The notes beneath the pieces were generated by a model. It saw nothing but the letters and a program-made list of their open reading frames with translations. It made no database searches and was not told where the DNA came from. Below, in pieces: positions 13,244 to 33,570 of a stretch of 64,000 bases of DNA; positions within the stretch are counted from its first letter, which is position 1; every line of letters starts with the position of its first letter. Position numbers and translations under genes: made by a program. The stretch comes from Vicugna vicugna (taxonomy: Eukaryota), in assembly GCA_013265495.1 (NCBI GenBank), contig MU057786.1, positions 62,001 through 126,000 on the forward strand. Direction: 5' to 3'.

Positions 13244-13362
13244 AAAACTTGGATTTTACAGAGGACTTGCCTGGTGTGCCTGAAAGTGTGAAGAAGCCCC
13301 CAAATAAACAAGGAGATAAATCGAAGGAAAATACCAGAAAGATTTTTAGTGGCCCCAAACGG
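13244..13362 (+). CDS. WAPL: WAPL exon 4 (119 nt)
   Basis: tttcag|AAAACTTG ... AAACGG|gtaagt; [18 protein letters not shown]...FSGPKR. Confidence 0.96.
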
Positions 13363-23579: not shown

Positions 23580-25400
23580 TAAAAGATTTTTAATATTTTT
23601 TACTTGGAAATAATTAAAAATAGTTTGTATTTGGAAATAATTTCAAAATTAATAGAAGAGTTGCAAAAATAAAATAGTACAAAGAACATTCCTTACCCTG
23701 ATTATCTTAATATTTGCCTTTTTCATTTGTTCTTTCTCTGTATTTGTGTGTGGTGTGTGTGTGTGTGTGTACACTCATACGTACACATTTTTTTCCTGAC
23801 TATTTAAGGGTAAGAGATATATGTATATTTTATATATACATATATATGTATTATATATGTGTGCATATTTTATATATATATATATCTAATTTCCTAGTCA
23901 GTTACATGTCCACATCACAGTAATCACCTTCAGTATAGATGACATTGTTCCAGTATTTTTATCTAATTTATTGTTGTGTCAGTTTTGTTAGTTGACACAG
24001 TAGTGTCCTCTGTAGTGTTTTCTCCTCTCTGGTACAGGATCCAGTCTAGGGTGAGGTATTTCGTTTAGCTATCATTCATTTAGTTGCTTAGCTGCCTCTT
24101 CAGTCTCCTTTTTTTGGGGGTGGAGGAAGGTTAGGTTTATTTAGTTCTTTATTTTAACGGAGGTACTAGGGATTGAACCCAGGACCTCATGACATGCTAA
24201 GCACACACTCTACCACTGAGCTCTCCACCTCTTTAGTCTCCTTTAAACAGGAACATTTCCATAGACTTTCTTTGTCTTTTATAACACTGACATCCTGTAT
24301 TTAAAAAAAAAGTTCCTCATTTTGGTTTAGTCTGATGTTTCCTCAGGATTGAATTCAGGTTATTCATTCTGGGCCAGGATACTGTGTTAAGTGATGATGA
24401 ATTCTTTTCAGTGTCACCTCTGGAGGATGCTAATTATGATCACCCAGTTAAAGGTTGTCCATTATTCCACTGTATACTATTTTTTTTCTCCCTTGCAACT
24501 GAAAAGCAGTCTTTGAAGAAACCATCCAAGTGCCCTTGTTCTTCACTAGGATATACTCTTAAATCTGCTGCCTGCAAAAAACCATTTTCCATCTCTCACA
24601 TCCCTTCACCTTCATCAGTCAGTCCTCACCGCCGTTATGAGCATCAGCCCATCCTCCTTCTCCCGTTTATTTATTCATTTGTTTATTTTATTTGGTTTTA
24701 TTTTTCTTTTATCAGTATGGACTTATGAATCCCTCCCCTCACTTTTAAAATGGTTTGAATTTGTCCTGACTTGGCTAATCTAGCTCTTCTTTCACTGTGA
24801 CATGCCCACATCATTTTATGAGCACTTTCTTACTTTCTGGCATAACAGTATTGCAGATTCATCTTGCACCTGGTGTGTTCCAGCCCTGGAATCAGGCCCA
24901 TTCTCTGAGGAGTCCCCATGCCCTGTAGTGGGGAATGGCACTAGAGACTAAGATCTGGGCAGTAGATGTAGTCAGCACTTCTTGGCCCCTTAGGTGGGAA
25001 ATATGCACGTACATGCATGTAGATTTTAGCATGTGCACATATCTGTTGTAGAAATCATGAGTTCACACTATGTTCAGTATTAGTCCATCCCTGCAGGGTT
25101 CTTTGCTTGCCTTCTGTTTTAACCCTGACTCGCAGCAGTATCAACACTTTTACTCAAACCTCTGATACATCTAAAATAGAATTGCTTTGTCTGTTCCACT
25201 GTAGTGAATAACTCTACTAATGTGCTTAGGATTTGCTTGTGATCCTGCACTTGCCCCAGGCTACACTGCCCATGACTCAGGGAGTAAAGTCAAATATTGT
25301 GTTATAAGTTATTTAGATTAGTTGTCTGCCTGTCTTTTGTTCGCTCTGTTTTCCTTTCAGTGTGTTTGCTGTTTGTTTGAGTTATAAGTAGGTTTATTTG
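23580..25400 (-). mobile_element. Ancient L1 (L1MC-like) 3' region with nested SINE
   Basis: ccagccctggaatcagg..cattctctgaggag; gaaatcatgagttcacact; same motif set as the 17.7-19 kb copy. Confidence 0.6.
24112..24228 (-). mobile_element. tRNA-Ala-derived SINE (Vic-1-like)
   Basis: ggaggtactagggattgaacccaggacctc...ctctaccactgagct; TSD ctctt(c/t)agtctccttt at 24096-24111 and 24229-24244. Confidence 0.88.
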
Positions 25401-26045
25401 TTCTGATTTGCTTTTATTTTAGGCTTTTTTCCCTTTTATTCTCATTTATTTAATTTTTTGATTGAATATGTATATTAACATGTTATGCATGCTTCCAAAA
25501 GTCAACACTATACAGAAAGGTAAGTTCAGTGAAGGGTCACTTCACTGGGAGATGTTGCAGCCCATCACCCACCTCTGGTAGGGAAGTGACTTAATTGTTC
25601 TCTCCTCTATCCTTTCTGTGTTTCTTTTTATAAAAAATAAGTACAAATTATCTTATTTTCCCTCCTTCTTATGTAAAAGGAAGTATCTATATGTGCACTT
25701 TTGCACTTTGCCTTTTTTTATTTAGTAATAACTCTTGGAAATCATAGTCTATAAGTTCATAGAGATCTTCCTTAGAGTATATGTATTTATAATTTTTTTA
25801 AGTTATATTTTTCCTTAGTGTTTTCCTTCCTCTATTCTCTTAAATGTTGTTTATATCCTTCAAAGTTACTTCTTTTTAAGGTTATATGTGTGTTGGTTAT
25901 GTATATACAAATCCAGTATTGGTAAAGTTTTGTATGTTCAGCACATCCCTATCATTATTTGGTCCTAATTTCAGTTGAAGATAATTCAGAGATTGTTGTC
26001 CTAGCATTTGGTTTAGCTACTGGAAAAGAAATCCTAGATTAGTTT

Positions 26046-26149
26046 TTATTTATTTATTATTTTAATGGAGGTACTGGGGATTGAGCCAGGACCTTGTGCA
26101 CGCTAGGCATACATTCTAAGACTGAGCTGTATCTCCCCCTGCCCCCCCC
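26046..26149 (-). mobile_element. tRNA-Ala-derived SINE (Vic-1-like)
   Basis: aatggaggtactggggattgagccaggacc...actgagct; flanking direct repeat attagttt. Confidence 0.85.
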
Positions 26150-26234: not shown

Positions 26235-26460
26235 ACCAGGGACCCAGCTTTCTCTGTGGTGGTGTTCTGCCATTTCTATAGTATTGAAGAGTACAAATAG
26301 AAGGAATGGGAAGGAGAGGCACTGGACCATCCCTAGAAGGCCAGGACCCAGAAGATGTACTACACTTCCATTCGTACATCATTGACTAGAACTTGGTCAC
26401 ATGCCCACTTGAGCAGCAAGCGATGCTGGAAAATCAGAACAAGCACGTATCCAGCTAAAG
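26235..26460. mobile_element. MaLR LTR fragment (MLT1-like)
   Basis: cattgactagaacttggtcacatgccca...gcaag...gctggaaaat resembles MLT1J/K as recalled. Confidence 0.55.
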
Positions 26461-29073
26461 AGTTTATGCTCAGATTATACTATTTCAAGGTGATGTTCTG
26501 AGGTGGCAATGCCTGCTTTTGTAAAGTTTTATAAAATTGTCACTAATTATACTGTTGAAGTTATACTTAAAACAGCTGAGTAGTGGTATGCATTGTTTTT
26601 CATATGATAGGAATTGACAGTTTCTTCATAAAAATAGCAAATGTATCTTTAAAAGGTTTATCTGCTATCTCTTACCTGAGTCAGGCAGAAAAGATTTTCA
26701 TCTCTACTTCTCCTGTTACTTGTAGATTATATTCTCTGCATAGTTCTCTGTCTTTAACATACTCTAAATGTCTGGTTCTTAGCAGTACAGACATTCTTGG
26801 CTTTAGTATAGGGATAGCTGCAGTTTTCCCTCAAATAATCTAATACCCTGAATATTTAACAAATCATGAAAATTTAAGGATTTTTGTTTTATCATAGTTT
26901 AGAACACTTTGAGATTATATGATTCTGCTTAAAAGAAAGTTCTAAAGAGCTGAAACATATTCTCATCTTTGCAAAATTTTCTCCTTCCGATTTCCAATGC
27001 TTCTACCACCCATCTCAAAAAAAAATCCTTAGCAATTAAAAAAAAAGCCAAATTGAGATTAATTTTCCCCCTTTTGAGTTTCCGCTAAAGTACCACACAC
27101 GCACATACACAGTTGTGCATTGCAGTGCTTTGCTTTTTCAGAGCTCATGTAGTTTGTAGAGTGTGCTGATGGAATTATTGGTGAGTGCATGCTTCTGTTC
27201 TCATGCTATCCTGGTGTGGGTAAGGCTGGATGAATTCTAATCAGCTTACTGTATTTGTCCTCATTTAGTACATAGTGCTCTTTAAAACTGAGAAATAAGT
27301 TTGGTACTGCTGAAGAATTGATAAGACTTAAAAAAGAATTGATAAGGCTTAAAAACAGTTATTCCAATATTTTTCCTTTTTGAGAGCCAGCTCAATAAAG
27401 GATAGCATAATATTGTCATTTCTTTGTAGCTTTTAATGAGGGAACTCTTCTTACCTCTGCTTTATAATTGTGATTCATTGAGCCAATCTGTTAACTGCAG
27501 CCTTGGCGTTATAGTAGTAAAAACTAATTTTTACCCATTGCTTTTATAGAAACTGGATTATCTCTCATGGATAAATTTTATGCTCCATAGTTCTGCCACT
27601 GGCATATTTTTTCCTTAGCTGTAGTGGAGTGTTAACATTTGACGTCTCCTTATGTGTCCTGCCCCTGGAGAATTGAATAGAAATGAATAATATGTTTAAG
27701 ATTACTAGGACTGAAGTATGCTAAAATGATTCCAAATATTTAGAATATTAGAGTAGTCTTAAGAGCTTTCTGCTCATTTTGTTTTAAGTATTCTTCCCAT
27801 TAGATTGCAGAGCAAACAGAATCCACAAATACTATAACATGGAGAAAAGTTATGGTTAATATGATGCATCTGCTTTTTAAACCACAATAAAATTAACAAA
27901 ATTAAAGATAAACCTGGTGGTATAATCAGAATGACTCAGTTAAAACTTAGCTAAGTTACTCAATGGCAAGAGTGATTTTCATTTTCCATGAAAAGTTGAT
28001 TGCTGTCTGGTATTCCTGCACATACTGTACACACTCACTCACTGAGTAGTGACATTAGAATGTGACATAGTAGTGTTGTGTGGTTTCTTTCCATATACAG
28101 TTCACTTAGGTGCATGTGAAATTGTTACACCTTTTGGAATGATGTAAAGAGCTCAAGAGTCCCTGAGTGTTGTCGTATCCTCCCATCCCCCCAGCATGTG
28201 TGTGTGTATTAACCACTCTAGATGTTACCTTTTATTTTAATTTTTAGATAGTGGGATGTATCTTCATCTCCTCCACCTGCCTGTAATAAACCCTATATTA
28301 ATCTTGTAAAACTTTGAAATAATAGCCAAGGAACAATTTTCATTGGTTTACTTTCCTTTCAATTACTCATTAGCATTAAAGTGGCAAAACACCAGCAAAA
28401 ACCTTTAAGATAATAGTATTTACTAAGTTGTCTTGTTCATCAGAGTAAACAAAAATTTCATTGAATGTATTTTGACTGTAACTTACGCAGTTATGCTGAA
28501 TACGTTAGGCTTCAAAGGCTTTTCAAAAATTTTATTTATTGTAGCAAAAAACACAGCATGAGATCTACCCTCAGGAAATTTTAAAGTGTACCATATTGGT
28601 AACTACTATTAGCACAATATTGTCCCATGGATCTGTAGAATTTTTTCATCTTGCATGACAGAAACTACTCATTGAACAGCAGCTCCCCATTTTGCCCCCC
28701 TCCAGCCCCTGGTAACCACCATTTCTGTTTTTATGAGTATGACTAGATATCTCATAAGTCGAATTATGCAGTATTAACTCCTTCTGTGACTGGCTTATTT
28801 CACTTAGTATAGCAGCCTAAAGATTCTTTCATGTTGTAGCGTATGATAGGATTTCCTTCTATTTTATTGATGAATAATAGTTGCCTCTTTTCCCTACACT
28901 TGTTTTTTGCTCTTTTCATGGTGGCCATCCTGATGGGAACGAAGTGATACTTCATTGTGATTTTGATGTTGTATTCCTCTTAATGCTTAGTGATGTTGAG
29001 CATCTTTCATGTACTTCTTAGCCATTTGTATGTCTTCTTTGGAGAAATTTCTATTCAGATCTTTTGCTTCCTC

Positions 29074-33474: not shown

Positions 33475-33570
33475 TCTCCTACAAAAGCTGTATATAATGC
33501 CAGACATTGGAACCATCCAGACTCAGAAGAAATACCTGGGCCACCAGTAGGAAAACCTCAGAGTGTCACA
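33475..33570 (+). CDS. WAPL: WAPL exon 5 (96 nt), includes YNARHWN motif at 33493-33513
   Basis: ttctctag|TCTCCT ... GTCACA|gtaagt; [32 protein letters not shown]. Confidence 0.96.

Follow-up and report, generated by a model that had tools for sequence, protein, structure and literature searches.

A 39-nt candidate exon in WAPL intron 4 of Vicugna vicugna and its possible readings

Pseudo-exons, poison exons, and shortened cohesin regulators

Pseudo-exons and cryptic exons are common in long mammalian introns. The poison exons of SR and hnRNP genes are highly conserved and sensitive to nonsense-mediated decay (NMD). In Drosophila, wapl reportedly exists in long and short forms, and a truncated dominant allele, waplAG, is said to alter cohesin binding. 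Minor transcript forms in general have been argued to be mostly errors (PMC13001929, in excerpt).

WAPL dose governs the residence of cohesin on DNA and the size of chromatin loops (PMC5422210, in excerpt). In the excerpted text of PMC11331136, the FGF and YNARHWN modules of WAPL occupy separate pockets of Scc1-SA2. Wapl 540-580 binds Scc1-SA2 directly, and 630-1190 alone does not pull down cohesin. Release is partly impaired when either module is lost and almost disappears when both are, the 3xEGE mutant showing partial impairment only. The same text has the N-terminus of Pds5B recruit Wapl via the YSR motif, which is required; PMC10656103 (in excerpt) points out that YSR is not known to be required for release. 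AlphaFold models in the latter source place a 20-residue stretch of WAPL along SA2 and a 10-residue WAPL peptide in the cleft for the Scc1 N-terminus.

An earlier note on the DNA studied here had proposed a hidden 39-nt exon in intron 4 of WAPL, serving either as a poison exon or as the start of a short in-frame isoform. We analyzed this candidate within a window of 64,000 nt, the whole stretch of DNA under study. With the pseudo-exons of long introns it shares consensus-like splice sites, a premature stop, and several equals in the same intron, and it differs from them in an acceptor that fits WAPL's own pattern unusually well and in one ATG with two donors in frame. The predicted short WAPL is N-terminally shortened like the Drosophila forms but does not start from a homologous exon. 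Poison cassettes of SR and hnRNP genes, such as that of SRSF6 (PMC9881134, in excerpt), also carry an in-frame stop far before the last junction, whereas the candidate has no branch motif in the usual zone. The short form would retain YNARHWN while missing both YSR and FGF, and in this it resembles engineered mutants and fragments of human WAPL (3xEGE, YSR-to-ASE, 500-630, and 630-1190; PMC11331136, in excerpt); these are constructs, whereas the short form is predicted only, and 550-1190 is not among the constructs in the excerpted text. N-terminally shortened Stag1 isoforms of mouse ES cells, which use alternative starts (PMC10679541, in excerpt), also concern a cohesin regulator with a disordered N-terminus. 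They belong to a different gene and come with transcript evidence, whereas the short WAPL is predicted from sequence.

In the open literature (subscription papers being outside the scope), we found no report of an exon in WAPL intron 4 or of a short mammalian isoform. The readable supplement files of splicing papers, several of them small, contained no WAPL splicing rows, which is a weak negative. The candidate exon may already be annotated in other resources.

The candidate exon within WAPL

Mapping of bat WAPL followed by manual refinement placed WAPL on the plus strand of the window from exon 3 to the stop codon, as 17 exons with AG/GT ends throughout. Exons are numbered as in the earlier note; the start codon belongs to an exon that the window does not include. 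The nearest named proteins for exon 3 are those of dog, seal, and horse (94-95%). In bat WAPL, the YSR motif is located at position 9, the FGF motifs at 73, 435, and 460, and YNARHWN at 562. Exon 3 of the window gene encodes the cleft-filling 10-residue peptide, and the junction of exons 4 and 5 (13362/33475) splits the SA2-lining stretch predicted in PMC10656103 (in excerpt). Since the junction lies inside this stretch, any intron 4 exon in use would alter the contact with SA2.

Table 1. Features of the WAPL region around the candidate exon (window coordinates).
Feature	Position	Strand	Remarks
WAPL exon 4	13244..13362	+	119 nt; ends ...IFSGPKR; phase 0
WAPL intron 4	13363-33474	+	20.1 kb; 38% T
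Nearest TNA branch-like motif	27083..27088	+	A at -54; three AGs intervene before the acceptor
CA-rich tract	27092..27113	+	sole intron 4 tract with at least 7 CA per 20 nt; fills the usual branch-point zone
Pyrimidine tract and CAG acceptor	27122..27141	+	pyrimidines 12/17
Candidate exon	27142..27180	+	39 nt; in the exon 4 frame SSCSL-stop-SVLMELL
Minimal uORF, ATG-TAG	27147..27152	+	weak context: C at -3, T at +4
In-frame TAG	27157..27159	+	could also act as a weak internal acceptor, leaving an in-frame insert of 21 nt
ATG GAA TTA TTG	27169..27180	+	exon 5 frame; C at -3, G at +4
Donor GTGAGT	27181..27186	+	one of 14 sense-strand GTRAGT in intron 4, including the true exon 4 donor
Second donor GTAAGG	27220..27225	+	39 nt downstream, same frame; outscores the first in both matrices
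AATAAA	27394..27399	+	downstream of the candidate; G/T-rich stretch follows
WAPL exon 5	33475..33570	+	96 nt

The letters and coordinates given earlier for the candidate agree with the window throughout, including the acceptor TTGCTTTTTCAG (27130-27141), the donor, and the minimal uORF, which is located 22 nt upstream of the ATG at 27169. Spliced as a cassette to the phase 0 end of exon 4, the candidate does bring its TAG into frame, after five codons, with 15 junctions further downstream and more than 50 nt before the last junction. From the ATG, the last 12 nt of the candidate and the 15 downstream exons translate into the 646 aa that had been predicted, with no internal stop, and from exon 5 on this frame is identical to bat WAPL in 628 of 642 columns. 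The motif map drawn for the short form is also correct: YSR and the three FGF motifs are gone and YNARHWN is retained, judging from the bat WAPL positions and PMC11331136 (in excerpt). Both donors share the frame of the ATG; with the second, the exon would end at 27219 and measure 78 nt, and the short protein of 659 aa would carry a leader of 17 residues. The earlier note mentions neither this second donor nor the missing branch motif described below. When spliced from exon 4, five of six tested acceptors lead to a stop or a frameshift.

The surroundings had been described as free of recognizable repeats. Self-BLAST shows a SINE of camelid appearance (26045-26143) and no further repeat as far as 28900; a 21-nt tandem duplication is located at 27313-27355. 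Its two copies are 95% alike and suggest a recent local duplication. A segment from about 26215 to 26465-26490 resembles an old MLT1-type LTR fragment. With a donor-like site at its end (26489, scoring 7.6), it could serve as a leader spliced to the acceptor at 27142 from upstream.

Splice signals and the pseudo-exon reading

All GT and AG in intron 4 were scored with two matrices, one holding textbook frequencies and the other trained on the 16 donors and 17 acceptors of WAPL itself. The candidate's own scores were used as thresholds, a choice favoring the candidate. Chance levels were taken from 200 Markov shuffles, and sites 20-250 nt apart were counted as pairs.

With the textbook matrix, the donor (7.9, a score as high in 9 of the 16 real donors) and the acceptor (7.9; 6 of the 17 real acceptors) lie inside the range of real sites. 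At this level or better, intron 4 contains 14 donors, 41 acceptors, and 6 pairs, and the shuffle means are 15.0, 34.9, and 5.4, respectively. The antisense strand has 9 such pairs and the other WAPL introns (19 kb) have 4, and the candidate pair is outside the top 12 of intron 4. Five of the 14 equally strong donors are preceded by an open in-frame ATG, four of those with G at +4; donors with an ATG and a G at +4 are somewhat commoner than in shuffles (4 vs 1.3 and 7 vs 2.4). The full feature set, namely a pair with an ATG inside and G at +4, occurs in 24% of shuffled introns.

With the gene-trained matrix, the full set occurs in 3% of shuffled introns. No other acceptor in intron 4 reaches the score of the candidate, and only 3 of the 17 real acceptors score higher; its level is also reached in 84% of shuffles, and the other introns contain two such sites. 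The candidate donor scores below all 16 real donors, whose scores are inflated by the training. The candidate pair ranks fourth in intron 4. Two pairs were observed vs 0.6 expected, a number reached in 14% of shuffles, and both are at the candidate locus. Since the features were chosen post hoc and 39 kb of intron had been open to the earlier note, chance can account for the splice pattern, which is mildly suggestive at best. Elsewhere in intron 4, a 159-nt acceptor-donor pair at 25361-25519, whose length preserves the frame, tops both matrices and is stronger than the candidate.

The region upstream of the acceptor departs from that of real WAPL exons. No TNA branch motif is present at -15 to -45 of the candidate acceptor, whereas each of the 17 real acceptors has at least one (strict yTNAy in 16 of the 17). 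Since just 10 of 139 decoy acceptors lack TNA, the candidate acceptor is poor even among decoys. Branch points without U at -2 exist, and the absent motif thus weakens exon use but does not exclude it. CA repeats bind hnRNP L, which is often a silencer of cryptic exons. The folding of RNA over the candidate is no better than that of shuffles (z -0.08), and a search of Rfam gave no match.

We lean slightly towards the reading of the candidate as a pseudo-exon whose use would not exceed noise. Chance would then have paired a convincing acceptor with a convincing donor in a 20-kb T-rich intron, and the spliceosome would normally skip 27142-27180, because the usual zone contains no branch motif and is occupied by the CA tract, and because a rival donor follows 39 nt on. 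The CA tract may serve as an hnRNP L silencer. Rare inclusion would place the stop five codons past exon 4 and lead to NMD, presumably with no regulatory role. The sequence features and their chance rates are observed, whereas skipping, silencing, and decay are inferred from them. Against the pseudo-exon stand the top rank of the acceptor under the gene-trained matrix and the full feature set in as few as 3% of shuffles. The CA tract, being unique in the intron, could also mark regulation. Moreover, the missing motif does not touch the reading as a short isoform, since branch sites are dispensable for first exons, and the protein search described below covered part of the WAPL clusters.

Possible alternative uses of the candidate and their predicted consequences

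The protein set comprised 297 sequences, gathered by protein searches and cluster look-ups, three of each. The main WAPL search gave the best 120 of 1058 matches; human, mouse, cattle, and full-length camelid WAPL, as well as the large mammalian cluster, are not among the matches listed, and protein clusters absorb shorter members. Among the matches listed, the start of exon 5 is found in 182 proteins (55 mammalian-type), of which 172 join it to exon 4, and the remaining 10 have intron read-through or unrelated leaders ahead of it. MELL precedes exon 5 in none of these 182, SSCSL follows the end of exon 4 in none of 179, and MELL, SVLMELL, or SSCS after exon 4 occurs in none of the 297 proteins among the matches listed. 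Short forms with the MELL N-terminus are absent both from the 48 matches of at most 656 aa (search over 30-656 aa, 82 candidates) and from the 19 matches of 238-760 aa (34 candidates). Since transcripts that are degraded leave no trace among proteins and only part of the matches is listed, this negative is weak.

Several deposited records bear on the exon 4/5 region in other ways. The rhinoceros record P0172 (655 aa) opens at exon 5 behind an unrelated leader and does not represent the candidate exon. Vicugna pacos P0124 (97 aa, 85% identical to the bat query) consists of WAPL exons 5-6 followed by intron-like sequence; it probably stems from an incomplete second copy at another site of the Vicugna pacos genome and could confuse the mapping of exon 5 reads. 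The marmoset records P0180 and P0183-P0185 stop or diverge just after exon 4; these are predicted intron 4 truncations, unrelated to the candidate by sequence. Five deposited models (birds, baboon) skip exon 5 or miss its start after exon 4 or 3.

A 48-aa antisense frame over the exon, compared by HMMER with 1.84 billion proteins, gave a single match to a tandem-repeat protein at 29% identity, which we attribute to chance, and an exact look-up of four window ORFs in the protein collection found none of them. In metagenome contigs, a transition-tolerant motif of the exon had 0 matches; since a control motif of exon 5 also had 0, this result says nothing about the exon. Of the words sampled from 26400-28200, a fraction of 0.23-0.42 is present in 14 sequencing runs (5 studies) that are, or may be, RNA; this fraction is no evidence on the use of the exon. 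The plateau near 0.4 also fits complete intronic coverage in a sister species diverged by about 3% (0.97^31 = 0.39).

A short WAPL starting at the candidate ranks next but is unlikely. A tissue-restricted promoter in intron 4, either CpG-poor or used with an upstream leader exon, would produce a transcript in which the exon with ATG 27169 is spliced to exon 5. The protein of 646 aa (659 aa with the second donor) would lack YSR, the three FGF motifs, and the 10-residue peptide and would keep YNARHWN and the helical domain. By analogy with the engineered variants, it would probably dock to SA-RAD21 by a single module, with a shortened contact to SA2, and act as a weak or competing release factor, with longer cohesin residence, and loss of the cleft plug could oppose the reduced release. 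The open 646-aa frame and the two donors in frame with the ATG favor such a start, and the missing branch motif fits an exon that uses its donor only. The direct binding of 540-580, the partial effect of 3xEGE, and the recruiting role of YSR (PMC11331136, in excerpt) point the same way. However, promoter marks are missing: CpG is not enriched at 26900-27300 (o/e 0.13-0.43; intron mean 0.16), and no CpG island, GC box, or TATA box is present within 600 nt upstream, the nearest TATA-like box being at 26530. A CpG-poor promoter may lie upstream of the candidate. The ATG has C at -3 and the ATG-TAG uORF ahead of it, and a good acceptor would be superfluous in a true first exon. The predicted N-terminus is also missing from the 48 and 19 short-form matches listed, and the exon junction cuts the SA2-lining stretch (PMC10656103, in excerpt).

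Quite unlikely, in our estimate, is the more specific proposal that a conserved tissue-restricted intronic promoter, active for example in germ cells or neurons, gives rise to a natural WAPL 550-1190 with a leader of 4 or 17 residues. Such a protein would retain one docking motif for SA-RAD21 but neither the anchor to PDS5, the FGF motifs, nor the cleft-filling peptide, and would thereby act as a built-in dial on cohesin residence and loop length.

A regulated poison cassette appears improbable as well. Its inclusion would add SSCSL and a stop, direct the mRNA to decay, and lower the WAPL dose, with the CA tract as a switch. Splice sites within the real range of the textbook matrix, the early stop with its 15 downstream junctions, and the stop or frameshift from five of six acceptors are in line with this role; however, almost any piece of intron would by default bring in a premature stop, which therefore has zero weight. 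Since a cassette needs its acceptor, the missing branch motif in the usual window hits the poison reading hardest. The recent-looking 21-nt duplication 130 nt downstream does not point to strongly conserved flanks, and in the open literature we found no paper joining WAPL and 'poison exon'.

Very improbable is an alternative last exon, in which exon 4 would be spliced to 27142, translation would stop at 27157, and cleavage at the AATAAA at 27394 would leave an N-terminal WAPL fragment that has YSR and FGF and lacks the release domain. The G/T-rich stretch behind this AATAAA agrees with such an end, but the hexamer occurs 18 times in intron 4 (0.9 per kb) and is therefore ordinary, the branch zone is weak, and SSCSL is found in 0 of 179 proteins among the matches listed. 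Two upstream donors should also suppress cleavage at 27394. An in-frame micro-exon, which would use TAG 27159 as the acceptor and lengthen the SA2-binding stretch of an otherwise complete WAPL by SVLMELL, is hardly credible: its 21 nt preserve the frame and are stop-free, but the acceptor scores are 0.8 and -1.6 in the two matrices and the insert is found in 0 of 297 proteins among the matches listed.

The indirect signs thus lean against both functions proposed in the earlier note, the short isoform and the poison exon. As it stands, the locus illustrates that in long introns chance brings together splice-site pairs with a stop and an in-frame ATG. If used, the candidate would be a poison or alternative first exon, notable for the gene that carries it, WAPL, and a natural short form, like a poison exon, would offer a novel means of setting cohesin residence and loop size. 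The short form, if true, would provide a natural test of the two-module docking model (PMC11331136, in excerpt).
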